A DNA stretch of 64,000 nt from Rhabdothermincola salaria (GTDB taxonomy: Bacteria > Actinomycetota > Acidimicrobiia > Acidimicrobiales > Acidimicrobilacustridaceae): assembly GCF_021246445.1 (NCBI RefSeq), contig NZ_JAJQXW010000001.1, positions 1,816,168-1,880,167 on the forward strand, written 5' to 3'. Below the pieces are notes generated by a model. The model was not told where the DNA came from. It made no database searches and saw nothing but the letters and a program-made list of their open reading frames with translations. Shown here one piece after another: positions 5,217 to 17,406 of the stretch (within the stretch, counting starts at the first letter, position 1; the number at the start of each line of letters is the position of its first letter). The translations under genes were made by a program, and so were the position numbers.

Positions 5217-5248
5217 GCTGCGCCGTTCCTGAGCTGCGCCGTTCCTCA
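5201..5248. repeat. 16-bp tandem repeat x3 (gctgcgccgttcctga) across the convergent gatD/prpE stops
   Basis: Copies at 5201-5216, 5217-5232 and 5233-5248 (last ends tca). Confidence 0.9.
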
Positions 5249-7144
5249 GCGCCGCAGCAGGGGCGCCAGCTCGTCGAGGACGGTGGGATCGTCGATGGTG
5301 GAGGGCACGTCGACCTCGCGCCCGTCGGCGAGGGCCCGCATGGTGGCGCGCAGCACCTTGCCCGAGCGGGTCTTGGGCAACCGGGAGACCACGATCACCC
5401 GCTTGAACGAGGCCACCGCCCCGATCTCGTCGCGGACCAGGGCCACCAGCTCGGCCTCGATCCGGGCGGGGTCGACGTCGACGCCGGACTTGAGCACCAC
5501 CAGCCCCAACGGCAGCTGGCCCTTCAACTGGTCGGCCACACCGATCACGGCGCACTCGGCCACCATCGGGTGGGTGGCGAGGGTCTCCTCCATGCCCCCG
5601 GTGGAGAGCCGGTGACCGGCCACGTTGATCACGTCGTCGATGCGTCCCATCACGAAGAGGTAGCCGTCGGCGTCGAGGCGGCCCCCGTCGCCGGTGAGGT
5701 AGTAGCCCGGGAAACGTTCGAGGTACGACGACACGAAGCGGTCGTCGTCCTGCCAGAGGGTGGGGAGGCACCCCGGGGGCAGTGGCAACCGGATCACGAT
5801 GGCACCGTCCGTGCCCGGTGGCACCGGCCGGCCGTCGTCGTCGAGCACCTCCACCGCGTAGCCCGGCACCGCCTTGGTGGGCGACCCCGGCTTCACCGGC
5901 AACGGCTCGACCCCCAACAGCTGCGACGCCACCGCCCACCCCGTCTCGGTCTGCCACCAGTGGTCGATGACCGGCACCCCGAGCAGCTCGCCCGCCCAGG
6001 CCAGCGTGTCGGGGTCGGTGCGCTCGCCGGCGAGGAACAAGGCTCGTAGCCGGCTCAGGTCGTGCCCGCCCAGGTGGGCGCCGGCGGCGTCCTCCTTCTT
6101 GATGGCGCGCAGCGCGGTCGGGGCGGTGAACATCACGTCGACCCGGTGGTCGGCCACCACCCGCCAGAAGGCCCCCGGGTCGGGGGTCCCCACCGGCTTG
6201 CCCTCGTAGAGCACGGTGGTGCACCCCGACAACAGCGGGGCGTACACGATGTAGCTGTGGCCCACGACCCAGCCCACGTCGGACGCCGCCCAGAACGTCT
6301 CCCCCGGCGCCATGCCGTAGACGTGGCTCATGCTCCAGCGCAGCGCCACCGCGTGCCCGCCGTTGTCGCGGACCACCCCCTTGGGCTTGCCGGTGGTGCC
6401 CGAGGTGTAGAGCACGTAGAGGGGGTCGGTGGCGGCGACGGGCACGCACGGGTGGGGTTCGGCGCCGGGCACCACGTCGGCCCAGGCCAGGTCGCGGCCG
6501 GCGAGGAGCGAGGCCTCCACCTCGGGTCGCTGCACGATCACGCAGCGTTCGGGCCCGGCCGAACCGGCCAGGTCGAGCGCCCGGTCGAGCAGCGGCTTGT
6601 ACTCGATCACCCGGCTGCCCTCGATGCCGCAGCTGGCCGACACCACCACCTTGGGGCGGGCATCGGCGATGCGCACCGCCAACTCGTGGGCGGCGAAGCC
6701 ACCGAACACCACCGAGTGCACCGCACCGAGGCGGGCGCAGGCCAGCATGGCCACCACCGCCTCGGGGATCATGGGCATGTAGAGCACGACCCGGTCGCCG
6801 GCGGCGACACCGAGGGCGGCCAGCGCCCCGGCGGCGCGGGCCACCTCGTCGCGCAGCTCGGCGTAGGTGACGTGGCGGATCGTCGCGGTGACGGGGCTGT
6901 CGTAGGTGAGGGCGATCTGGTCGCCGCGCAACCGGTCGACGCCGTCGCCTCCGTCGACCCAACGGTCGAGGGCGTTGAAGCAGGTGTTCAGGCGACCGCC
7001 GACGAACCAGCGGGTGAACGGGGCGTCCGAGGCGTCGAGGACCTGATCGGGAGGGGTGTCCCAGTGGATGGCGGCGGCGGCGTCGCCCCAGAAGCCCTCG
7101 GGGTCGGCCAGGCTGGCGGCGTGGAGCTCGTCGAAGGTTCCCAT
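5246..7144 (-). CDS. prpE: Propionyl-CoA synthetase (AMP-forming acyl-CoA ligase)
   Basis: YTSGTTGKPKG, VVRDNGGH, DHWWQTETG, GRIDDVINVAGHRLSTG, LPKTRSGK. Confidence 0.88.
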   Translation of the reverse strand: MGTFDELHAASLADPEGFWGDAAAAIHWDTPPDQVLDASDAPFTRWFVGGRLNTCFNALDRWVDGGDGVDRLRGDQIALTYDSPVTATIRHVTYAELRDEVARAAGALAALGVAAGDRVVLYMPMIPEAVVAMLACARLGAVHSVVFGGFAAHELAVRIADARPKVVVSASCGIEGSRVIEYKPLLDRALDLAGSAGPERCVIVQRPEVEASLLAGRDLAWADVVPGAEPHPCVPVAATDPLYVLYTSGTTGKPKGVVRDNGGHAVALRWSMSHVYGMAPGETFWAASDVGWVVGHSYIVYAPLLSGCTTVLYEGKPVGTPDPGAFWRVVADHRVDVMFTAPTALRAIKKEDAAGAHLGGHDLSRLRALFLAGERTDPDTLAWAGELLGVPVIDHWWQTETGWAVASQLLGVEPLPVKPGSPTKAVPGYAVEVLDDDGRPVPPGTDGAIVIRLPLPPGCLPTLWQDDDRFVSSYLERFPGYYLTGDGGRLDADGYLFVMGRIDDVINVAGHRLSTGGMEETLATHPMVAECAVIGVADQLKGQLPLGLVVLKSGVDVDPARIEAELVALVRDEIGAVASFKRVIVVSRLPKTRSGKVLRATMRALADGREVDVPSTIDDPTVLDELAPLLRR

Positions 7145-7259
7145 CGGCGCCGACGCTACCGCCGACCCGGCGGGGCGGTGGGGGCTCGATCGGGGCCGAC
7201 ACGGTCACGTCGGCCCGGTGCGGGGCCGGGTGCTGACGACGGGTGGGCGGGGCCCCGGG

Positions 7260-7754
7260 TCAGGCGAACGTGACGCTGGCCAGCACGGCGTTGACCTCGC
7301 GCACCAGCACGTTGCGGAGCCGGTGGCTGCCGATCACCACGTAGAGGCAGAAGGGCCGTCCCTCGGCGACGAAGAAGCGCTGGAGGCCGGCCTGGCCGGC
7401 GATGCCGCGCTGGAGGGTGTCGGGCGAGAAGTCGTCGCCGGCGAACGGCCACGGGATGGCCTGGCCGGCGAAGAGGGCCGTGGCCGCCTCCTCGACCGGG
7501 TGCTCGAGCAGCGAGATGAAGATCGCGCCCGACTCCATGAGCTCGACGGCACCGCCGCCGAAGTCGCCCCGCACCGGCGGCAGCCCGAAGTTGGCCACGT
7601 GGGCGATGGGCGGCACCGACTCGGCTCCGCCGAACGGGGCCAGCGTCTCCGGTGCCCGGGGGTCGGGCAGCGGGTCCGGGTCGCGGCGGTAGATCTGGGC
7701 GTCCCACCCGTTGGGTGGGGCGACGGTGAGGCCGTGGGCGGACAACGTCGGCAT
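7260..7754 (-). CDS. Hypothetical protein (164 aa) downstream of the mau-like cluster
   Basis: Protein-like frame MPTLSAHGL..GRPFCLYVVIGS; CAGACT -10-like hexamer 8 nt before ATG. Confidence 0.75.
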   Translation of the reverse strand: MPTLSAHGLTVAPPNGWDAQIYRRDPDPLPDPRAPETLAPFGGAESVPPIAHVANFGLPPVRGDFGGGAVELMESGAIFISLLEHPVEEAATALFAGQAIPWPFAGDDFSPDTLQRGIAGQAGLQRFFVAEGRPFCLYVVIGSHRLRNVLVREVNAVLASVTFA

Positions 7755-7861
7755 GATCCGCCAGTCTGCCACCGAACGACCCGCCGGCGGGAGGCGGCGC
7801 CGGGGTCCGACGCCGACGCCGGCTGCGCGGGGAGGGGCCGCCCGCGTCGTCTCGGCCGGCC

Positions 7862-8545
7862 TCAGGCCAGGGTGACGGTGGCTCCGACCGCCACCACCAC
7901 GACGGCGAGGTCGCCGACCACGGTGGCCACCCGGGCCCACGAGGCCCGGGCCTGGAGGCGGCGGTGGAAGACCACGAGGGCGTCGGGGTCGTGCACCCCC
8001 CGGGCGGCCAGGATCGCCAGGCCGCGCACCAGACCGAAGGTCAGCCCGATCAGGCCCCCCAGCAGCCACGAACCCGACAGCAGGCAGGTCACGAAGACCA
8101 CGTAGACGAGCCCAGCGGTGACGATGGTGGTGAGTCCGGCACCGAGCTGGAGGCCGAACCCGCCGCCGTAGACCCAGCCCCGGTAGGAGGTCATCCAGTC
8201 CTCGTTGACCTGCCGGCCGTAGCGGGGCAGGGGCAGCCGACCCCCGGAGGCGTCGGCCGCGAGCGCACCGAGCGCCACCACGCCCACGACGACGGCGACG
8301 GCCACCTCTCCGATCCAGGCCACCAGCGGGGTGCCCACCAGGCCCAGGAGCGCGCCGAGCAGGGCGCCGCCGAGCGCCGACCCGAGGATGTGGGCGGTGA
8401 CGGTCAACCACCACCGTTGGGCTCGTCCCCGCTCACCGAGCGGAGTGATGCTCGAGAGCATCGACTCCCCTCAGGGCGACCACGTGGAGCGGATGGCCCC
8501 GATGACGGCCGAGACCAGGCCGACGACGACCAGGGCGACGGGCAC
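7862..8545 (-). CDS. MauF-like (DsbD/CcdA-type) membrane protein, predicted selenoprotein with in-frame TGA at 8471-8473
   Basis: GTG 3 nt after upstream TAG gives MPVALVVVGLVSAVIGAIRSTWSP-(TGA)-GESMLSSITPLGE; MauF motif is STWSPCG; ORF track shows only 7862-8461. Confidence 0.8.
8427..8468 (-). promoter_or_regulatory. Candidate bacterial SECIS hairpins 3' of the in-frame UGA
   Basis: CUCCGCUC[GGU]GAGCGGGG with loop 33 nt after UGA; also GGAGU-C-GAUGCU[CUCG]AGCAUC-ACUCC immediately after UGA. Confidence 0.55.
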
Positions 8546-8548
8546 GGC

Positions 8549-9442
8549 CTACGGCAAGGGCGCGTCGCGGGCGTCGGGCCCGGCGGCGGCGTCGTCGTCG
8601 TCTCCGTCGGCGGGATCGTCGTCGGCGATCAGCTGGCTGGGATAGAGGCTGGGGTGGCCGGGGCCGATGCCGGCGGCGCGCAGGTCGCGGTCGGCCCGGG
8701 CGGTGCGCTCCGGGCCGGTGAGGCGGCCGGCGGGGGCCGAGCGGTGCAGCGACGAGCCGTCCACGTCGTGGCCGGCGTCGGCCGCGGCCTGACCCAGGAG
8801 GTTGGCCACCTGGGCCCAGGTGGCCGCCGCCCCTTCGCCGAGCACGGCTCCCGAGGGGCCGTCGACGAGGATGAAGTAGGGGTTGGCCGGCACGCCGTAC
8901 TCGTCGTACGCCGCACTCGACATGAGGGTGGTGACCCCCGTCGGGGCCAGGCCGGCCACCGCGCTCACGCTCTCGGCCTCGGGACCCTTGGTGACGACCA
9001 CCAGGCGGGTGTCGCGCCCGGGCAGTCGGGTGCCCTCGCCGTCGGCGAAGGCCTGCCAGAAGTCGGCGCAGGTGCCACAGCCGCTCGACAGGAACGCCAA
9101 CAAGGTGGTGTGGTCGGTGCCGACCACCCCCGCCACCGTGGCCGCCCCGTCGGGGGTGACGCCGGCGATGTCGTGGGCGTCGGTGCTCACCACGCCGGTC
9201 TGCGATCGCGGCTCGGGCACCCCGGGTCGGGTGCGGATCTCGACCGGAGAGCGCACCCCTCCCGTGGTGGACCCGGTGCCCGACGGGTCGGTGGGGTCGG
9301 CGCCGTCGGCACTCTCGTCGTAGATGCCGGCCCCGAGCTCGTGGAGGCGGCGCAGGATCTCGGCGTGGCTGCGCAGCAGCCCGACGACGAGCACCGCGAG
9401 GAGGGCCACCACGAGGGCCAACAGCACCACGACGACGGTCAC
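8549..9442 (-). CDS. MauD-like membrane-anchored thioredoxin-fold protein
   Basis: N-terminal TM, LLAFLSSGCGTC (CxxC), YGVPANPYFILVDG cis-Pro region; GTGA overlap with upstream stop. Confidence 0.82.
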   Translation of the reverse strand: MTVVVVLLALVVALLAVLVVGLLRSHAEILRRLHELGAGIYDESADGADPTDPSGTGSTTGGVRSPVEIRTRPGVPEPRSQTGVVSTDAHDIAGVTPDGAATVAGVVGTDHTTLLAFLSSGCGTCADFWQAFADGEGTRLPGRDTRLVVVTKGPEAESVSAVAGLAPTGVTTLMSSAAYDEYGVPANPYFILVDGPSGAVLGEGAAATWAQVANLLGQAAADAGHDVDGSSLHRSAPAGRLTGPERTARADRDLRAAGIGPGHPSLYPSQLIADDDPADGDDDDAAAGPDARDAPLP

Positions 9443-11595
9443 GAGACCCTCACCGAGCGGCAGGCCAGGAGCACGTTGTCGCCCCGGCCGCGGTTGATCA
9501 GGTACACGCAGACCGTCCGGGACCCGCGAGACGCCCCGACCGTGACGTCGAAGCCGTGTGACGGCCCGTACAGGGGATGGGCGGCGCCGACGTCGCTGCG
9601 GTTCTTCGATGCCGTGGCGACTCCCGCGCCGACACCGTCGACGTACACGTGCACGTCGATCGGTCCCGCGGTGTCGGGGTCGATGGCCCAGCCCTGCAGC
9701 CGGATGGTGCCGGACCCCCCTCTTGCCACGTCGAGAGACCCGAACGGCGAGCCGCCCACCAACACCGATCGACATCCGATCAGGCTGTTCGAACCGGGGC
9801 CGAGGTTGATGCCGTAGGCGCACACCGTCCGGAGCCCGGAGGAGGCCGGCAGCTCGGCCGAGAAGCCCCGCGCCGACCCGTACCCCGGGTAGGCCGCAGC
9901 CACGTCGGAGCGCCGGCGATCGGCCCGCAGGACGTGGCCGACGCCGTCGACGTACACGTGCACGTCGACGGGGTCGGAGCTGTCGGGGTCGAGGAGCCAA
10001 CCGGCGACGGCGATCTTGCCCGGTCCGGCGCGCACGACGTCGAGGGCACCGAAGGGTGCCCCGGAGAGCACGTTGACGGGCCGCACGGCGATCAAGGCGT
10101 TGGGGCCGGGGCGATCGTTGATGGCGTAGGCGACCAGCTCGTGGCTGCCCGGTGGGGCCGGCACCACGACATCGAAACCGTGGTTGGTGGAAGGGCTGGT
10201 CGAGCTCAGCGCGGGTCGGGGATCGTCGGCGAGCACCGCCAGGCCCTTGCCGGCCACGTAGAGGTGGACCTGGATGGGATCGGTGGTGTCGGGATCGCGC
10301 GCCCAGCCCCGCACCCGCAACCCACCCGGAGCCGGATCGACGCGCTCGACCGTCCCGATCGGGGTTCCCACTTCGATCGTCCGCGACCCGAGCAGCACGT
10401 TGCCCGACCCGCCCCCGACGTTGATGGCGTAGACGTCGACCCGGTGACGCCCCTGCGGGACGTCGATCGTGACCCGGAAGCCGTGGTCGGCGCCCATGCC
10501 GAAGGCGACGTCGAGGTCCGCACGGCGCCGGTCGGCGCGCACCGCCACGCCCTTGCCGGCCACGTACACGTGCACGTCGATGGGGTTCGTGGTGTCGGGA
10601 TCGATCGCCCACCCCTCGACGGTGACCTTGCCCGTTCCGACGGTCACGTTGTCGATGACCCCGAAGGGGTTGCGGCTCACGACGGTGCGGCAACCGATGA
10701 TGCCGTCGGAACCCGGGCCGATGTTGACCGCGACGGCGCAGACCTGGCGCTGGCCGCCCTGGGAGCCGGGCAGGACGACATCGAACCCGTGGTTGGGGCC
10801 CATGCCCGGGTGGGCGGCGGCGATGTCGGACCGAGGGCGGTCGGCGCGCACCACGGCGACGACCTCGCTGTTCATGATGAGCCGGACGTCGACGGAGGCG
10901 TTGGTGTCCCAGTCGATGGCCCACCCCTTGACGCGGATGCCCCCCGAGACCTCGGTGGCGGAGTCGATCTGGCCGGTCACCCCGTGCAGGCAGGAGCGGT
11001 CGTGGGTGGCGGTGGCGTTGTCGACGCGGATGGTGCCGGTGCAGGTGCCGTCGATCTCCCACGGCGCGATGCACGTGACGAGCCGGCAGATGATCGGACC
11101 CACGCACGCCACACCCTGGTTGCACTGGCCGTAGCGGAAGTTGGTGCAGCCGGCCTTGCGGTTGTTGCAGTCGCCGTTGGCGCACCCGCACCCGGTGCCC
11201 GAGCAGGAACCGCTGCACACGCCGCTGCCGCCGCACCCGCAGCCGTTGCAGGGCGCGTTGCAGTCCATGTAGTAGCGGGGGCCGCTGCAGAACCCGGTGC
11301 CGTCGACCTTCCACCAACCGGCGAGCAGCGAACCCGGAGGGCACTGGTTGCGACCGGTGAGGGTGCAGCAGAACTCGGTGTAGCCGTCGCAGCACAACGA
11401 GCCGCACGCGCAGGCCTGCCCCTGGCACGAGCACACCGCGGCGTAGGCGTCGGTGGGGGTGAGGGCATAGGAGACGGGATTGGCGGCGATGGCCGAGCCG
11501 ACCACCGCGCTGCGGGCGAAGAAGCCGCGGCGGCCCATTCGGGCGGAGAGGGCGCCGGCGACCTTGTCGACCAGCGTCGTGGTGGCACGGCTCAT
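9439..11595 (-). CDS. Tat-exported Cys-rich MauA-like domain fused to five ~100-aa beta-rich surface repeats
   Basis: GRRGFF Tat motif and AYA cleavage site; 26 Cys in ~150 aa including CCDG, CPPG..GWW, YYMDC; 5x GWxxDxD..HVYV..RxD..HGF repeats. Confidence 0.8.
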   Translation of the reverse strand: MSRATTTLVDKVAGALSARMGRRGFFARSAVVGSAIAANPVSYALTPTDAYAAVCSCQGQACACGSLCCDGYTEFCCTLTGRNQCPPGSLLAGWWKVDGTGFCSGPRYYMDCNAPCNGCGCGGSGVCSGSCSGTGCGCANGDCNNRKAGCTNFRYGQCNQGVACVGPIICRLVTCIAPWEIDGTCTGTIRVDNATATHDRSCLHGVTGQIDSATEVSGGIRVKGWAIDWDTNASVDVRLIMNSEVVAVVRADRPRSDIAAAHPGMGPNHGFDVVLPGSQGGQRQVCAVAVNIGPGSDGIIGCRTVVSRNPFGVIDNVTVGTGKVTVEGWAIDPDTTNPIDVHVYVAGKGVAVRADRRRADLDVAFGMGADHGFRVTIDVPQGRHRVDVYAINVGGGSGNVLLGSRTIEVGTPIGTVERVDPAPGGLRVRGWARDPDTTDPIQVHLYVAGKGLAVLADDPRPALSSTSPSTNHGFDVVVPAPPGSHELVAYAINDRPGPNALIAVRPVNVLSGAPFGALDVVRAGPGKIAVAGWLLDPDSSDPVDVHVYVDGVGHVLRADRRRSDVAAAYPGYGSARGFSAELPASSGLRTVCAYGINLGPGSNSLIGCRSVLVGGSPFGSLDVARGGSGTIRLQGWAIDPDTAGPIDVHVYVDGVGAGVATASKNRSDVGAAHPLYGPSHGFDVTVGASRGSRTVCVYLINRGRGDNVLLACRSVRVS

Positions 11596-11605
11596 GACGG
11601 TCGGC

Positions 11606-12184
11606 TCATGTGAGGGGGGCCTCCACGGAGAAGGAGCGAACGGGTCGGCCGGTCCCGGCGGAGCCGGGGGTGCGGCGGGCGGCGACGAGCGCCTCGGGCA
11701 GGGCGGTGAGCAGGGCGACCCCGAGGCCCACGGCGACGAACGACACCGACAGGTAGGCGACGCCGGCGGCGGGCAGGTCGGGGCGCATCTCGATGAAGCC
11801 CGGCGCCCCGGTGACCGCGGCGGAGACGGCGACGAGGGCGGCCGCCCCGTCGACGACGGCGTGCACCAGGGTGGGCGGGGCCGACGAGGCCCCGAAGCAG
11901 CCACAGGAGACGGCCGCCTCGCCCGCGGCACGCAGGCGCAGCACCGAGCCGGTGAAGACCACGAACAGCACCGCGGTGGCGGCCGCCAGCCACGGGCCGC
12001 CGAACAGGTAGGTGGCGACCCCGATGGCCACCTCGGCGGCGCCGAGGAGCCGGGCCAGGGCGGGTCGGGCGGGCAGGCGCAGGGCCTCGAGCATGGGCAC
12101 GGTGGCGGCCGGGGCGCGCAGCTTGGCCATCCCTCCCACGGCGAGAACGCCGGCCACGACCCCCAAGAGGCCTCCGAGCACCAC
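11606..12184 (-). CDS. mauE: MauE/DoxX-family redox membrane protein
   Basis: GMAKL, AAE, CGCFG motif, several TM helices; TACCAT -10 8 nt before GTG 12184 (alternative start 12220). Confidence 0.88.
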   Translation of the reverse strand: MVLGGLLGVVAGVLAVGGMAKLRAPAATVPMLEALRLPARPALARLLGAAEVAIGVATYLFGGPWLAAATAVLFVVFTGSVLRLRAAGEAAVSCGCFGASSAPPTLVHAVVDGAAALVAVSAAVTGAPGFIEMRPDLPAAGVAYLSVSFVAVGLGVALLTALPEALVAARRTPGSAGTGRPVRSFSVEAPLT

Positions 12185-12233
12185 GTCGGCCGATGGTAGT
12201 GCCGGTCGCCCGCAGTTCACCCGAGGGGGCGGG

Positions 12234-12284
12234 CGGTCAGGGGGTGATGACGGTCAGGCGGTGATGACGGTCAGGGGGTGATGG
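12234..12284. repeat. 17-bp tandem repeat x3 (cggtcaggSggtgatgR) at the carboxyltransferase stop
   Basis: Copies at 12234-12250, 12251-12267 and 12268-12284. Confidence 0.9.
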
Positions 12285-13788
12285 CGGTGCGCTGGACGGG
12301 TTCGGGCGGGGCCTGGCGACGCGACAGGGCCCGCCGGAGGGCGTCGAGCAGCACGGTGCGGGTCTCGCGCGGGTCGATGAGCTCGTCGAAGCCGAGGTTG
12401 GCGGCCGACCGGTACGAGGCCTCCAGCTCGGCCTCACGCAGCAGCGTGGCCTCGTCGACGTCGGCACCGGTGGCCCGGCTCATGGCCGCGGCACCCATGG
12501 CCCCGAGGGTGGCCCCGGGATAGGCGAAGGTGGCCGACTGGCCGTCGAAGCCGACCAGGGACATCACCATGGAACCGAAGCCGTAGGCCTTGCGCAGGGT
12601 GAGGTGCAGCTTGGGGCTGGTGGCCTGGGTCTGCGCCGCGAACATGCGCGCTCCGCTGCGCAGCACCCCGGCCCGCTCGGAGGCCCGCCCCGGGAGCATG
12701 CCCGGGTTGTCGGCCAGGAAGACCAGCGGCAGGTGGAAGGAGTCGGCCACGGAGATGAAGTGGGCGGCCTTGTCGGCGGCGTCGGCGTCGACCGACCCGG
12801 CCAGCACGCTGGGCTGGTTGGCCACGATGGCCACCGGATCGCCGCCGAGGTGGGCGAGGGCGCAGATGATGGACGGGCCGAAGCCGGGCTGGACCTCGAA
12901 CCAGTGGCCGTCGTCGACGACCACGTCGAGCACGTCGGCCATGTCGTAGACCCGCCGGGTGTCGCGGGGCACGATGCCGAGCAGCTCGTCGGTGGGCCTC
13001 GGCCCCTGGTCGCCGCCACCGACGCGGGGCGGGTGGCTCCAGGCGCTCGACGGGAAGAACTCGAGGTAGTGGCGCAGCATGTCGAGCGCCGAGGCGTCGT
13101 CCGGCGTGACGTTGTGGATGAGGCCGCTGGCCACGGCCACCGACGGCCCGCCCAGGTCCTCCTTGGAGATCTCCTCGCCGAGCGACTCCTTCACCACCGG
13201 TGGCCCGGCGGTGAACACCGCGCCGTCGGCGGTCATGACGCTGAAGTCGCTCATGGGCACGATGAGGGCACCGTGACCGGCCGAGGGGCCCATGACCGCG
13301 CTGAGCACCGGCACCCGTCCCGAGCACTGGGCCTGGATGAGCAGGTCGGTGGGGGCCCGGCCCCCTCCCCCGCCACCGCGGTGCCCGGCACCCTCCAACA
13401 ACATGAGCAGCGGCATGCGGTCACGCAGCGCCAGCTCGGCGATGCGATAGCGCTTGGAGCTGCTGCCCGGCCCGATCGAGCCGGCGAGGGTGGTGAAGTC
13501 CTCGGCCCCGACCATGACCGGGCGGCCGTCGATGCGGCCGGCGCCGGCCACGATGCCGTCGGACGCGATGGACTCGCCCACCAGCGTGCCGATCTCGCGG
13601 AAGGTGCCGGGGTCGAGCAGGTGCTCGACGCGCTGGCGGGCGTCCATGAGGCCGCGGGCGTGGCGCTTGGCCAACCGCTCCTCGCCGCCCATGGCCCGCG
13701 ACGCGGCTCGGCGCTGCGACAGGTCGGCCAGGGTCGGCCCCCACCCACCGGGCAGGTCGGGGGCCCCGGTGGCGTCGTCGGGGCTCAT
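12271..13788 (-). CDS. Acyl-CoA carboxylase beta (carboxyltransferase) subunit
   Basis: AMGGEERL, GRIDGRPV, FTAGPPVVK, EDLGG, ADNPGMLPG, LRKAYGFG, IDPRETR. Confidence 0.92.
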   Translation of the reverse strand: MSPDDATGAPDLPGGWGPTLADLSQRRAASRAMGGEERLAKRHARGLMDARQRVEHLLDPGTFREIGTLVGESIASDGIVAGAGRIDGRPVMVGAEDFTTLAGSIGPGSSSKRYRIAELALRDRMPLLMLLEGAGHRGGGGGGRAPTDLLIQAQCSGRVPVLSAVMGPSAGHGALIVPMSDFSVMTADGAVFTAGPPVVKESLGEEISKEDLGGPSVAVASGLIHNVTPDDASALDMLRHYLEFFPSSAWSHPPRVGGGDQGPRPTDELLGIVPRDTRRVYDMADVLDVVVDDGHWFEVQPGFGPSIICALAHLGGDPVAIVANQPSVLAGSVDADAADKAAHFISVADSFHLPLVFLADNPGMLPGRASERAGVLRSGARMFAAQTQATSPKLHLTLRKAYGFGSMVMSLVGFDGQSATFAYPGATLGAMGAAAMSRATGADVDEATLLREAELEASYRSAANLGFDELIDPRETRTVLLDALRRALSRRQAPPEPVQRTAITP

Positions 13789-14672
13789 GCGTCGGCGGGG
13801 ACCGGGGTCTCGCCCTCGCCCGCGGCCTCGATCTCGGCTTCGACCTCTTCTTCGGCCTCCTCGGCGGCGGCGCTCACCGACTCCTGGCCGTCCGGGCGGG
13901 GCGGGCGCATGTCGGGGAAGGCCCGCAGGGTGTGCCCACCGTCGACGGTGAGGTGCTGGCCGGTGACCCAGCTCGACTCCGGCCCGGCCAGGTAGCGGAT
14001 GGCCTGGGCGATGTCGTCCGCCTCACCGCCGCGGGCGAGGGGTTGGTTGGCCAGGAAGGCCGCCATCATGTCGTCGTCGGCGAACAGACCGGTGGTGCTG
14101 GCGGTGCGGGTGAGCCCGGGACGCACCGAGTTCACCCGGATGCCCTCCTCGCCGAGCTCGTCGGCGGCCACCTCGACGAGCGCGTCGACGGCGGCCTTGC
14201 CGGTCTTGTACGAGGCCAGGCCCTTTGTGGAGAAGGCCGCGGCGGTGGACGACACGGCCACGATGGAGCCGCCGGGCGGCATCGCCGGCACGGCGTACTT
14301 GAGCAGGAGGAACACCGGGCGCACGTTGCGGTCGACCTCGGCACTGAACTGGTCGGGGTCGTAGTCGACGAGGCGGGAGGGGCTCCCTCCTCCGGGCACC
14401 GTCACCGCGATCTCGAGGCTGTCGCCGTCGGCCGCGAAGGCCACGGCATCGGCCACGTCCATGGGGCGCAGGGTGTCGCAGGGGCAGGGGTGCACCTCGA
14501 GGCCCTCGGCCGCCAGGACGCGCAGGGCGTCGACCAAGCGCTGCTCGTCGCGCCCGGCGATGGTGACCCGGCAGCCGTCGGCCGCCAGCAGGCGCGCCGT
14601 GGCCAGGCCGATACCGCTGCTGCCGCCGATCACCAGGGCGTGGGTGCCGTCGAGGGGTGCGTCGCTCGTCAT
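13785..14672 (-). CDS. SDR oxidoreductase
   Basis: GGSSGIG, YKTGK (YxxxK), IRVNSVRPG, TGQHLTVDGG. Confidence 0.92.
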   Translation of the reverse strand: MTSDAPLDGTHALVIGGSSGIGLATARLLAADGCRVTIAGRDEQRLVDALRVLAAEGLEVHPCPCDTLRPMDVADAVAFAADGDSLEIAVTVPGGGSPSRLVDYDPDQFSAEVDRNVRPVFLLLKYAVPAMPPGGSIVAVSSTAAAFSTKGLASYKTGKAAVDALVEVAADELGEEGIRVNSVRPGLTRTASTTGLFADDDMMAAFLANQPLARGGEADDIAQAIRYLAGPESSWVTGQHLTVDGGHTLRAFPDMRPPRPDGQESVSAAAEEAEEEVEAEIEAAGEGETPVPADA

Positions 14673-14800: not shown

Positions 14801-15970
14801 ATGCAGTTCGATGCCGACGGGTTCGAAGAGCGAGCCAGCGAGGCCGCCGGCGGTCTCACCGACTTCGGGCACCCCTCCTACCGGGAGGCCCTCGAGGTGT
14901 TCCTGGGTTCGGCGGGCGCCGATGGCGCCCTGAACGCCATCGGTGAGGCCTCGGTGGAGGCCATGGCGATCGGTTCGCTCACCAACCGTCTGCGGGTCAC
15001 CGACTGGCACGCCCGCCACCCCGAGGTGGGGGCGGCGTCGGTCGAATCGCCGATCTTCCTCATCGGGTTGCCCCGCACCGGCACCACCGCGCTCAGCCAC
15101 CTGTTGGGGGCCGACCCCGCGAACCGCTCGCTGCTGGCCTGGGAGGCCAACGAGTCGGTGCCTCCGCCGACCGCCCAGGGCTACCGGGAGGACCCCCGCT
15201 TCGTCGCCGCCATGGAGGCGCCGAACATGCTCGACCTCATCAACCCCGAGTTCAAGGCCATCCACTTCGACCCGCCCGACATGCCGGTCGAGTGCGCCAC
15301 CGTGCTGGGCCAGCACTTCACCAGCCTCCACCTGGCCACCGTGTACAACGTCGAGACGTACCGCCGGTGGCTGTTCGCGGCCGACCACACCGAGGCCTAC
15401 CGCTACCACCGCCAGGTGCTGCAGGTGCTCCAGTCGCAGTGCCCGGGCCAGTGGCAGCTCAAGTCGCCGGTGCACCTGGTGGACCCGTCCGCCCTCGCCG
15501 CCGTCTACCCCGACGCCCGGTTCGTGCTCACCCACCGCGACCCGGTGCGGGTGACGGCATCGGTGCTGAGCCTGGTGCGGTCGCTCACCGGCACCTTCAG
15601 CGACGCCGACCGCACCGCCTACATCGCCGAGGCCTGGACCGACGTGGTGGTCACGCTGCTCGAGCGCCAGAGCGCCTTCCGCGACGCCATGGAGGCCCGG
15701 GGCAAGGGGGGTAGCTTCGTCGACGTGGCCTACGCCGACCTGGTGGCCGACCCGATGGGCACGGTCACCACCGTCTACGAGCAGCTCGGCCAGCGCCTCT
15801 CGCCGGAGGCCAGCGACGCCATGCACCGCCACGCCGCCACCCACACCCAGGGGGCCCACGGCTCCCACCAGTACTCCCTCGACGACTTCGGCGTGTCACC
15901 CGACGCCCTGGCCGAACGCTTCGCCGACTACACGACTCGCTACGCCGCCCACCTGGAGGCACCCCGATGA
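14801..15970 (+). CDS. Sulfotransferase family protein
   Basis: GLPRTGTT (5'-PSB), WQLKSPVH, THRDP..SVLS (3'-PB); RBS ggaggg. Confidence 0.92.
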   Translation: MQFDADGFEERASEAAGGLTDFGHPSYREALEVFLGSAGADGALNAIGEASVEAMAIGSLTNRLRVTDWHARHPEVGAASVESPIFLIGLPRTGTTALSHLLGADPANRSLLAWEANESVPPPTAQGYREDPRFVAAMEAPNMLDLINPEFKAIHFDPPDMPVECATVLGQHFTSLHLATVYNVETYRRWLFAADHTEAYRYHRQVLQVLQSQCPGQWQLKSPVHLVDPSALAAVYPDARFVLTHRDPVRVTASVLSLVRSLTGTFSDADRTAYIAEAWTDVVVTLLERQSAFRDAMEARGKGGSFVDVAYADLVADPMGTVTTVYEQLGQRLSPEASDAMHRHAATHTQGAHGSHQYSLDDFGVSPDALAERFADYTTRYAAHLEAPR

Positions 15971-17406
15971 CCGATCTCGCCGAGCTCCTCGACACTCGCG
16001 ACGTCCTCGACCTGGCCTGGATGGTCGTCAACGGCGAGATCGCCCCTCGCGAGCTGGTGGAGGCCTCGATCGCCCGGATCGAGGAACGCAACCCGGCCCT
16101 GAACGCCGTGGTGGCCACCCGCTTCGAGCAGGCGCTCGCCGAGGTCGACGCCGGGCTTCCCGAGGGCCCCCTCAAGGGCGTGCCCTTCGTGGTCAAGGAC
16201 CTGGGCTGCGACGTGGCCGGCCTGCCCGCCACCCGCGGCAGCCGGCTCTTCGCCGACGTCGTCGCCGCCGAGGACAGCGAGCTCACCCGGCGCTACCGGA
16301 CCGCCGGGCTGGTGATCCTGGGCAACACCAACTCCCCCGAGTTCGGCAAGAACGCCAGCACCGAACCCCTGCTGCACGGACCCACCCGCAACCCGTGGCG
16401 CACCACCCACTCCACGGGCGGGTCCAGCGGGGGTACCGCGGCCGCCGTGGCGGGGGGCATGGTGCCGGCCGGGCACGGCAACGACGGCGGCGGATCCATC
16501 CGCATCCCGTCGTCGGCCTGCGGGTTGTTCGGGCTCAAGCCCACGCGGGCCCGCACGCCGTCGTGGCCGGCGCCGTCGTTCTTCTCGTATCCGCTCTCGG
16601 TCGGCCATGCCCTCACCCGATCCGTGCGCGACAGCGCCGCCATCCTCGACGCCACCGCCGGAGGGATGCCCGGCGACCCGTTCAACGCGCCCCCCACCCC
16701 GCGGGCAGGCACGTTCATGGCCGTGTTGGCCGAGCCTCCGCACCCGTTGCGCATCGGGTTCTCCACCTCCTCGGTGGCGGGCAACCCGGCCGACCCGGCC
16801 GTGGCCGCCGCCGTCGAGCGGATGGCGAAGGTGTGCGCCGAGCTCGGCCACGAGGTCACCGAGGCCCGCCCGGTCTACGACCCGGGCCAGGTCGTCGAGG
16901 CCGTCTCGGTGGTGATGGGCGCCATGTCGGCGGCTCAGGTCGAGGAGCGGCTGGCCGAGCTGGGCCGGGAGCTGGGCGACGACGACCTCGAGCCCTTCGT
17001 CCGCTTCATGCACGAGCGCAGCCTGCAGATGTCGGCGCAGGATCTCAACCGCGCCCTGCAGGGCATCGAGGTGGTGAGCCGGTCGGTGGCCGACTTCTTC
17101 GTCGACCACGACCTGTGGCTGTGCCCCACGCTGAACCCCCGGGTGCCCGAGTTGGGCTGGCTCGACACCACCAGCCCCGAGGCCATGTTCACCCGGGCGG
17201 GGGCGTACAGCGAGATGACCGCCCCCGCCAACGTCACCGGCATGCCGGCCATGTCGGTGCCCGCCGGCCACGACGACGACGGCCTGCCCATCGGCGCCCA
17301 GTTCGTGGCCACCCACAACCGCGAGGGCATCTTGTTGCAGGTGGCCTCCCAGATCGAAGAGGCCGCCCCGTGGCCCAAGATCGCCCCCTGGCCCCCGCCT
17401 GGCTGA
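15967..17406 (+). CDS. Amidase (amidase-signature family)
   Basis: GVPFVVKD, GGSSGG, GNDGGGSIRIPSS, GLKPTR; ATGA overlap with sulfotransferase. Confidence 0.95.
   Translation: MTDLAELLDTRDVLDLAWMVVNGEIAPRELVEASIARIEERNPALNAVVATRFEQALAEVDAGLPEGPLKGVPFVVKDLGCDVAGLPATRGSRLFADVVAAEDSELTRRYRTAGLVILGNTNSPEFGKNASTEPLLHGPTRNPWRTTHSTGGSSGGTAAAVAGGMVPAGHGNDGGGSIRIPSSACGLFGLKPTRARTPSWPAPSFFSYPLSVGHALTRSVRDSAAILDATAGGMPGDPFNAPPTPRAGTFMAVLAEPPHPLRIGFSTSSVAGNPADPAVAAAVERMAKVCAELGHEVTEARPVYDPGQVVEAVSVVMGAMSAAQVEERLAELGRELGDDDLEPFVRFMHERSLQMSAQDLNRALQGIEVVSRSVADFFVDHDLWLCPTLNPRVPELGWLDTTSPEAMFTRAGAYSEMTAPANVTGMPAMSVPAGHDDDGLPIGAQFVATHNREGILLQVASQIEEAAPWPKIAPWPPPG

Follow-up and report, generated by a model that had tools for sequence, protein, structure and literature searches.

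A gene of Rhabdothermincola salaria (Actinomycetota), located in the 64,000-nt stretch of contig NZ_JAJQXW010000001.1 analyzed here (positions 1,816,168 to 1,880,167; below, the window), encodes a 718-aa protein with a 26-Cys domain behind a leader of the type found in MauA, the light chain of methylamine dehydrogenase (MADH). We assign a probability of roughly 60% to the following reading: the product is an envelope protein exported via the twin-arginine translocation (Tat) pathway, its head is a cofactor-less domain derived from MauA and held by about 13 disulfides, and its own Mau-type folding cassette has the protein as dedicated client. Across Actinomycetota the Cys-rich head travels with four further genes as a cassette of five, and one cassette member, the MauF-like gene, is probably an unannotated selenoprotein.

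The open reading frame (ORF) of the Cys-rich protein starts with ATG at 11595, 10 bases past the stop of the upstream gene on the minus strand, and the gene is present in a single copy in the genome. According to the translation and the repeat alignment, the 718-aa product is composed of a Tat leader, the 26-Cys domain and five repeats.

9439..11595, minus strand: whole gene of the Cys-rich protein, 718 aa, stop included (translation)
11440..11595, minus strand: MauA-type twin-arginine leader, residues 1–52 (..LVDKVAGALSARMGRRGFF..AYA; also SARMGRRGFFARS) (leader-only profile compared with MauA leaders)
10975..11439, minus strand: mature Cys-rich domain, residues 53–207, 26 Cys (Cys positions, model, fold and language-model searches, conservation)
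9439..10974, minus strand: five tandem repeats of ~102 aa (GWAxDPDT..VHVYV..HGF), residues 208–718 (repeat alignment)

The translated N-terminus reads MSRATTT..MGRRGFFARS..AYA, and the leader is likely to be cleaved after AYA (residue 52); TatC is encoded in the same genome. All 26 Cys fall within residues 55–202, that is, they make up 26 of 148 residues, and the AlphaFold2 model of the mature domain has a predicted local distance difference test score (pLDDT) of 86.2. The repeats of residues 208–718 have no Pfam or NCBIfam match, and presumably form a stalk holding the protein in the envelope or at the cell wall. An earlier sequence-only reading of this DNA had reported 26 Cys behind a twin-arginine leader and quoted the motifs CCDGY, NQCPPGSLLAGWW, YYMDCN, FRYGQC and APWE. 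The former is confirmed, positions 10975–11595 being residues 1–207 of the minus-strand ORF, and every motif is found as quoted; the ORF does not end at 10975, the stop being at 9439, the protein is not a small subunit, and the C-terminal repeats had been overlooked.

The first 215 residues matched, at E ≤ 1e-3, 855 of 1379 candidate proteins of 394–1257 aa and 223 of 570 candidates of 30–393 aa. A mature-domain profile (A5, 83 sequences), searched against 1.84 billion clusters at 50% identity, retrieved 479 representatives at E ≤ 1e-3, 382 at 1e-10 and 189 at 1e-30. Of the genomes sampled, 96 of 301 from Acidimicrobiia (54 of 146 genera) and 32 of 401 from Actinomycetota contain the domain, 22 of these 32 lying outside Acidimicrobiia; both tallies take in the unpublished genomes G228 and G541. 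Sixteen Cys are invariant among 235 aligned homologues (the sequences with a near-complete domain out of 240 aligned), and this, together with the 855 and 223 homologues, demonstrates that the Cys-rich domain is no chance pattern. The 11 source names at hand for homologues describe a “hypothetical” protein or one with a “twin-arginine signal domain”, an “S-layer homology domain” or an “LGFP repeat”, and our literature search found no publication on the family.

Stand-alone versions of the Cys-rich domain, about 200 aa long, exist as well. Selenocysteine within the domain, considered for the rows marked as having TGA inside, was rejected, as this TGA is the genuine stop of the stand-alone forms. 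Other relatives carry C-terminal modules in place of the repeats: LGFP repeats were found in 11 of 30 wider-family proteins (hand-picked from the longer, lower-ranked rows of the profile search), an S-layer homology (SLH) module in P0059 and Big_7 in P0019. LGFP and SLH are wall-binding modules, and their presence in relatives suggests that the head is located in the envelope or at the wall.

The number of Cys per domain is even in 233 of the 235 homologues, being 20 in five sequences, 22 in 16, 24 in 52 and 26 in 160, with 27 in the two others. Cys are lost in pairs: 119 and 164 together in 48 sequences, 57 and 69 in one, and 57, 62, 64 and 69 in three, while in further loss patterns the parity is maintained via gained Cys at positions 134 and 149. 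Even counts are also seen in all nine stand-alone forms and in 85 of 94 representatives of the wider family. As the counts are even and the losses paired, about 13 disulfides are the best reading of the head; among three possibilities put forward in the sequence-only reading, the 13-disulfide scaffold is thus the best supported.

The other four genes of the cassette lie around the Cys-rich gene on the same strand, in the order MauE – client – MauD – MauF – orf164.

11606..12220, minus strand: MauE-like membrane protein of 204 aa carrying CGCFG, a CXC site (Pfam MauE, PF07291, E 2.4e-13)
8549..9442, minus strand: MauD-like membrane-anchored thioredoxin-fold protein with CGTC, start uncertain (GTG between 9430 and 9442) (MauD profile)
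7862..8545, minus strand: MauF-like membrane protein, 227 aa with TGA taken as selenocysteine (MauF profile, read-through alignment)
7260..7754, minus strand: orf164, conserved 164-aa protein without a signal peptide, PsbP/Mog1/DcrB-like fold, fifth cassette gene

Profiles of the cassette families, built on 80 related loci, were set against the full set of ten mau proteins of Paracoccus denitrificans (HHalign matrix). The MauE-like profile matches P. denitrificans MauE (probability 95.1%, E 3.3e-8, 116 columns), the MauD-like profile matches MauD (95.0%, E 3.9e-8, 104 columns), and the MauF-like profile matches MauF (97.4%, E 9.3e-12, 150 columns). Apart from these pairs, all P values in the matrix are at least 0.014; for orf164 none of the ten proteins matched (best P 0.08), BLASTP against MauJ gave E 0.86, and no Pfam or NCBIfam family was found. 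The single MauE-like protein scores 50.9 bits against PF07291 (cut-off 27), and the MauD-like one matches the MauD family TIGR02661 with E 0.007 and 15.8 bits, far under the cut-off of 188.6; NCBIfam has no curated hidden Markov model (HMM) for MauF.

The active-site motifs are conserved: in the MauE-like family C–G–C and the next G are present in 63 of 63 sequences and F in 60 of 63, and CxxC is invariant in all 75 MauD-like proteins. The MauE-like protein is a candidate DsbB-like disulfide generator, its CGCFG agreeing with the active site, a CXC motif followed by F and G, via which MauE complements dsbB in Escherichia coli as reported in bioRxiv 10.64898/2026.03.05.709764, where MauD is interpreted as DsbA-like and MauE is described as a generalist mostly found without MauA. 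A tblastn comparison of the MauE-like protein with plasmids gave no match. In three relatives (P0375, P0115 and P0416) one predicted protein holds a MauE domain ahead of the Cys-rich domain, with Pfam MauE above the cut-off in two of the three; these may be true fusions or merged gene calls.

The five-gene set is not a peculiarity of the window. HMM counts at 80 Acidimicrobiia loci are 72 for MauE, 75 for MauD-like, 48 for MauF-like and 68 for orf164, with all five genes together at 47 loci and, among the 38 loci with the full 12 kb available, at 27. At nine stand-alone loci the same counts are 9, 9, 7 and 8, all five genes being found at seven, and ten loci from other classes have every one of the five genes in all ten cases. 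Any other neighbor family, by all-vs-all clustering of ORFs of at least 140 aa, is present in no more than four of the 38 full-length loci. The gene order varies, and is permuted to MauE – MauD – MauF – orf164 – client at loci L100–L102, L106 and L108 from other classes.

The MauF-like gene is disrupted in ordinary gene calls. The ORF starting with ATG (7862–8461) is only the 3' part of it, and the frame continues through the gap of 87 bp that separates this ATG from the stop of the MauD-like gene; read on the minus strand, 8447–8545 gives GTG at 8545, a hydrophobic helix, RSTWSP, TGA and GESMLSSI.. Two features characterize this region.

8471..8473, minus strand: in-frame TGA, candidate selenocysteine codon in WSP-U-G (alignment and codon counts)
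8447..8462, minus strand: hairpin GAUGCU-CUCG-AGCAUC resembling a selenocysteine insertion sequence (SECIS), 11 nt past the U of UGA (stem conservation)

In the read-through, STWSP-U-G aligns with STWSPC79G of P. denitrificans MauF. The codon at this Cys position is TGA at 49, TGC at nine and TGT at six of 64 loci, WSP being present upstream at 64 of 64. A perfect 6-bp stem (GAUGCU/AGCAUC) is found at 45 of the 49 TGA loci vs. none of the 15 Cys loci; Rfam at E ≤ 1 has no family in 7000–12500 of the window, the hairpin included. The genome also encodes tRNA-Sec (G000:C2:662642-662737), SelA and SelB (adjacent, G000:C4:200419-203279), and SelD (G000:C1:1793059-1793982), the latter on the same contig, some 22 kb ahead of the first position of the window. 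The MauF-like protein has no further conserved Cys, and the Cys or selenocysteine residue presumably is its redox center.

For comparison with MauA, the mau cluster of P. denitrificans (NC_008688) and an alignment of 48 MauA sequences were used. The full-length family profile matches the MauA profile with a probability of 96.9%, E 1.9e-10, over 73 columns, and the leader alone matches MauA leaders equally well (96.9%, E 1.4e-10, 27 columns), so this signal comes from the leader. The leader match is specific: in a search space of 31,953 ORFs of the same genome and 121 MauA-family proteins, the HMM of the family leader ranks the gene itself first, followed by 88 MauA leaders, with the first other ORF of the genome at rank 90 (E 0.027). 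The protein thus has an extended Tat leader of the MauA type; the reverse search with the MauA-leader HMM fails (rank 89 of 345, E 24).

The mature domain, taken without the leader, is also linked to MauA by two kinds of searches. In the ESM Atlas language-model search clusters of PF02975, the MADH light-chain family, come first and account for 19 of 30 matches, the best score being 0.90 with 184 of 256 features. In the fold search with the model, two clusters of light chains with tryptophan tryptophylquinone (TTQ) are ranked first and second among 48,161 chains, although the structural match is weak. Moreover, the neighboring genes match MauE, MauD and MauF one-to-one, which also argues for MauA ancestry. 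Based on these comparisons, the Cys-rich domain is a probable remote homologue of MauA.

A number of observations weigh against this interpretation of the head and its cassette. Profile comparison of the mature domain alone with MauA yields only 21–22 columns (DG..C.C..G.N.CPPGT) with P 0.005–0.007 and a probability of 6–7%, and is not improved by adding nine divergent stand-alone forms to the profile. Pfam at E ≤ 1 finds nothing in the 718-aa protein, and profiles A1 and A5 find nothing in PDB at E ≤ 10. The MauA HMMs (full, leader and mature) do not retrieve the gene from the 31,953 ORFs, with the full-length HMM not listing it at E ≤ 100, and the forced global alignment (hhalign -glob) gives meaningless two columns. 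Hence, homology of the mature domain to MauA is not established by sequence comparison. As regards the disulfides, Cys counts are odd in nine of the 94 wider-family rows, and a stand-alone subfamily from other Actinomycetota classes (L103, L104 and L107) has 25 Cys in three cases of three. The MauF-like gene is not found within ±6 kb at 11 of the 38 full-length loci; these include the closest relatives of the window gene (L005–L009, L011, L032 and others). Finally, the very strong conservation of W94, W95, D111 and FRYG would fit a catalytic or cofactor site as well. In the 25-Cys subfamily, a Cys is located two residues past Trp–Trp (WWQC).

The likeness to the MADH light chain proposed in the sequence-only reading is accordingly retained in part, on several lines that are each weak or indirect (the leader, the language-model and fold rankings and the neighboring genes), and not for Pfam, for the HMMs compared with PDB or, given the P value of about 0.005, for the mature-domain profile. 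Two further searches were negative: PF02975 has no match above the cut-off in the genome, only two weak ones (E 0.065 and 0.15), both elsewhere, and phmmer with residues 1–207 against PDB finds only Tat leaders of nitrous-oxide reductases, at E ≥ 1.2. The alignment of DG..CC..CPPG made by eye has been recovered by the profile comparison, as the sole such stretch of the mature domain, albeit at the P value and over the few columns mentioned above.

The alternative that survives best, and that we still consider unlikely, is that the Cys-rich domain is unrelated to MauA, being an independent cysteine-knot family which shares with MauA the leader type and the MauE/D/F cassette, so that the resemblances are due to convergence or chance. 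It would explain the low score of the mature-domain profile and the lack of Pfam or PDB sequence matches. It also agrees with two published observations, that MauE occurs mostly without MauA (bioRxiv 10.64898/2026.03.05.709764), and that mauE/mauD clusters of Streptomyces described in PMC7794033 adjoin unrelated Cys-rich precursors. Against it speak the first two places of TTQ light chains in the fold search, the first place of PF02975 in the leader-free language-model search, the one significant local match, DG..C.C..CPPG, which has the order and spacing of MauA, and the homology of the leader itself to the MauA leader. MauF is likewise common to both systems, and to our knowledge it has so far been found only in mau clusters.

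Asp32 and Asp76 of the MADH beta subunit are required for TTQ biogenesis. The cofactor itself is a cross-link of beta-Trp57 and beta-Trp108, made by MauG, as described in PMC11951088. Extending the profile alignment, at low confidence, pairs residues of the Cys-rich domain with the beta subunit as follows; beyond DG..CPPG the confidence is close to zero.

D70: pairs with Asp32 of MADH beta
W94: pairs with Trp57 of MADH beta
D111-C112: pairs with Asp76-Cys77 of MADH beta
C136-x-C138: pairs with CPC of MADH beta
N159-Q-x-V-A163-C164-V-G: pairs with NDIIW108CFG of MADH beta

The Trp108 column contains A in 129, P in 54 and S in 21 of the 235 homologues, and no Trp. W179 is the one other frequent Trp (185 of 235; Y takes its place in 21 of the 94 wider-family rows), and no further Trp downstream is invariant among the 235 homologues. 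In the wider family, W94 and W95 are present in 94 of 94 representatives, D111 in 93, and FRYG and C170–R171 again in 94, D70 in only 54. The absence of a Trp108 equivalent, observed in the sequence-only reading, is confirmed. The proposed Asp/Trp/Asp triad is only partly conserved: the Trp, as part of Trp–Trp, and the Asp76 equivalent are kept, and the Asp32 equivalent is variable. In the genome, which is 97.8% complete, neither the heavy chain MauB (PF06433, E ≤ 1) nor MauG (PF03150, E ≤ 0.01) has a match. As there is no second Trp, no MauB and no MauG, TTQ is excluded in the Cys-rich protein, and in the preferred reading, as neither heavy chain nor MauG nor second Trp was found, the protein is not an amine dehydrogenase and has no TTQ-making role.

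Another Trp-derived cofactor is not supported by these data. It has been considered in the following form: the head bears a new protein-derived cofactor on the conserved Trp, either uncross-linked tryptophylquinone or a Cys–Trp link similar to cysteine tryptophylquinone (CTQ), formed without MauG, and would be a heavy-chain-free redox enzyme displayed on the wall. We regard this as improbable, somewhat more so than the independent origin. W94–W95 and D111 are nearly universal in the wider family, W94 and D111 are placed by the alignment extension at MADH Trp57 and Asp76, the domain is conserved far beyond the needs of a scaffold, Tat export commonly goes with cofactor-bearing proteins, and the 25-Cys subfamily and the nine odd rows would have one Cys free for a cross-link. 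All this is countered by the A/P/S column in place of Trp108, D in just 54 of 94 rows at the Asp32 equivalent, the lack of a MauG match in the genome, even Cys counts in nearly all close homologues (233 of 235), and the near-zero confidence of the residue equivalences themselves.

Genomic context argues in the same direction: no haem, flavoprotein or radical S-adenosylmethionine (SAM) gene is conserved near the cassette, any other family being limited to four of the 38 loci. The known routes to TTQ and CTQ that are described in PMC11951088 depend on MauG, QhpG or LodB/GoxB, and CTQ-type partners (radical SAM/QhpG or the flavoproteins LodB/GoxB) are not conserved beside the gene at the 38 full-length loci. 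The CTQ proteins (the gamma subunit of quinohemoprotein amine dehydrogenase, LodA and GoxA), with a Trp quinone in the absence of a second Trp, would be relevant only if the cofactor reading is right, and their fold is unrelated. More doubtful still is the specific proposal that the invariant Trp–Trp/Arg–Tyr–Tyr–x–Asp/Phe–Arg–Tyr–Gly site forms a MauG-independent Trp-derived redox cofactor on a heavy-chain-free MauA fold, either a quinone on a single Trp or, in the odd-Cys subfamily, a Cys–Trp link. If it is true, this is a new quinoprotein displayed on the walls of many Actinomycetota and matured with selenocysteine-containing MauF.

Metal binding, also suggested in the sequence-only reading, is very unlikely. 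In this case the CxC, CC and CGCG runs would bind Cu, Zn or Fe–S in place of forming disulfides, and the head would be a metal store or sensor exported in the folded state: residues 116–138 are indeed rich in CxC and Gly, and Tat export suits metal-loaded proteins, but Cys are lost strictly in pairs with the counts staying even, the stretch 116–131, the richest in CxC and the most metallothionein-like, is the one most often lost among homologues and hence the most dispensable, which speaks against conservation of a metal site, the cassette is made up of thiol-disulfide oxidoreductase types and is accompanied by no conserved metal chaperone or transporter, and there is no conserved pattern of His or Met ligands except H198.

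Among known systems, the Cys-rich protein is closest to the light chains of MADH and aromatic amine dehydrogenase (MauA and AauA; PF02975; PDB 3c75_M and 2agl_D), which are the best, though weak, structural and language-model match of the domain. Common features are the long Tat leader, the small and presumably disulfide-rich beta domain predicted for the head, the motif order DG..C.C..CPPG..W..Y.DC and the presence of mauE, mauD and mauF nearby. On the contrary, the head has 26 Cys, compared to 12 in the light chain, lacks the Trp108 equivalent, heavy chain, MauG and amicyanin, has a variable Asp32 equivalent, is PF02975-negative, and is fused to repeats or LGFP/SLH modules in a monoderm phylum. 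The genes mauF-mauE-mauD of P. denitrificans (NC_008688) share with the cassette the one-to-one profile matches, CXC–F–G in MauE, CxxC in MauD and STWSPCG in MauF; in the cassette the client is not a dehydrogenase, the MauF Cys is TGA at 49 of 64 loci, and the fifth gene, orf164, has no mau counterpart. Candidate clusters of peptides that are made ribosomally and modified post-translationally (RiPPs) in Streptomyces, as presented in PMC7794033 (decRiPPter), also combine MauE and MauD, without other mau genes, with an exported Cys-rich product (at least 8 Cys). Their products are, however, small peptides proposed to be RiPPs, unlike the conserved 155-residue domain studied here, which has a leader of the MauA type and belongs to large, presumably wall-held proteins.

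The genes flanking the cassette in the window (5246–7144, 12271–13788 and 13785–14672 on the minus strand and 15967–17406 on the plus strand) look metabolic: a carboxyltransferase is confirmed by Pfam, and for the others inspection by eye suggests an acyl-CoA synthetase, a short-chain dehydrogenase and an amidase. Related loci do not have these genes beside the cassette as conserved neighbors.

For the preferred reading, a cofactor-less head matured by its own cassette, we propose the following sequence of events. The cytoplasmic PsbP/Mog1-like product of orf164 may possibly handle the precursor before export via Tat. The head, of about 155 residues, would be released from the leader near AYA(52) and fold as a very remote descendant of the MADH/AADH light chain, with about 13 disulfides and no cofactor. 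The MauE-like membrane enzyme would generate disulfides at its CGCFG site, and the membrane-anchored MauD-like thioredoxin would hand them on via CxxC. The putative selenocysteine of the MauF-like protein (WSP-U-G) would most likely provide for fast thiol-disulfide exchange or for proofreading of the 13-disulfide knot, while the five ~102-aa repeats probably keep the head at the cell wall. The invariant patch formed by N83-x-CP, W94–W95, R107-YY-x-D111, F153-RYG and C170–R171 presumably serves for ligand binding or other activity.

Only recently has MauE been shown, in bioRxiv 10.64898/2026.03.05.709764, to generate disulfides in the manner of DsbB, for the most part with no link to methylamine dehydrogenase. 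If the proposed reading is right, the cassette supplies a natural MauE client outside MADH, namely a large family whose head would need about 13 disulfides, and opens a way to the functions of MauF and MauD. It also predicts that MauF exists as a selenoprotein, in a form overlooked by ordinary gene calls. Finally, monoderm bacteria would have a branch of the TTQ light-chain fold that lacks the cofactor or is equipped differently.

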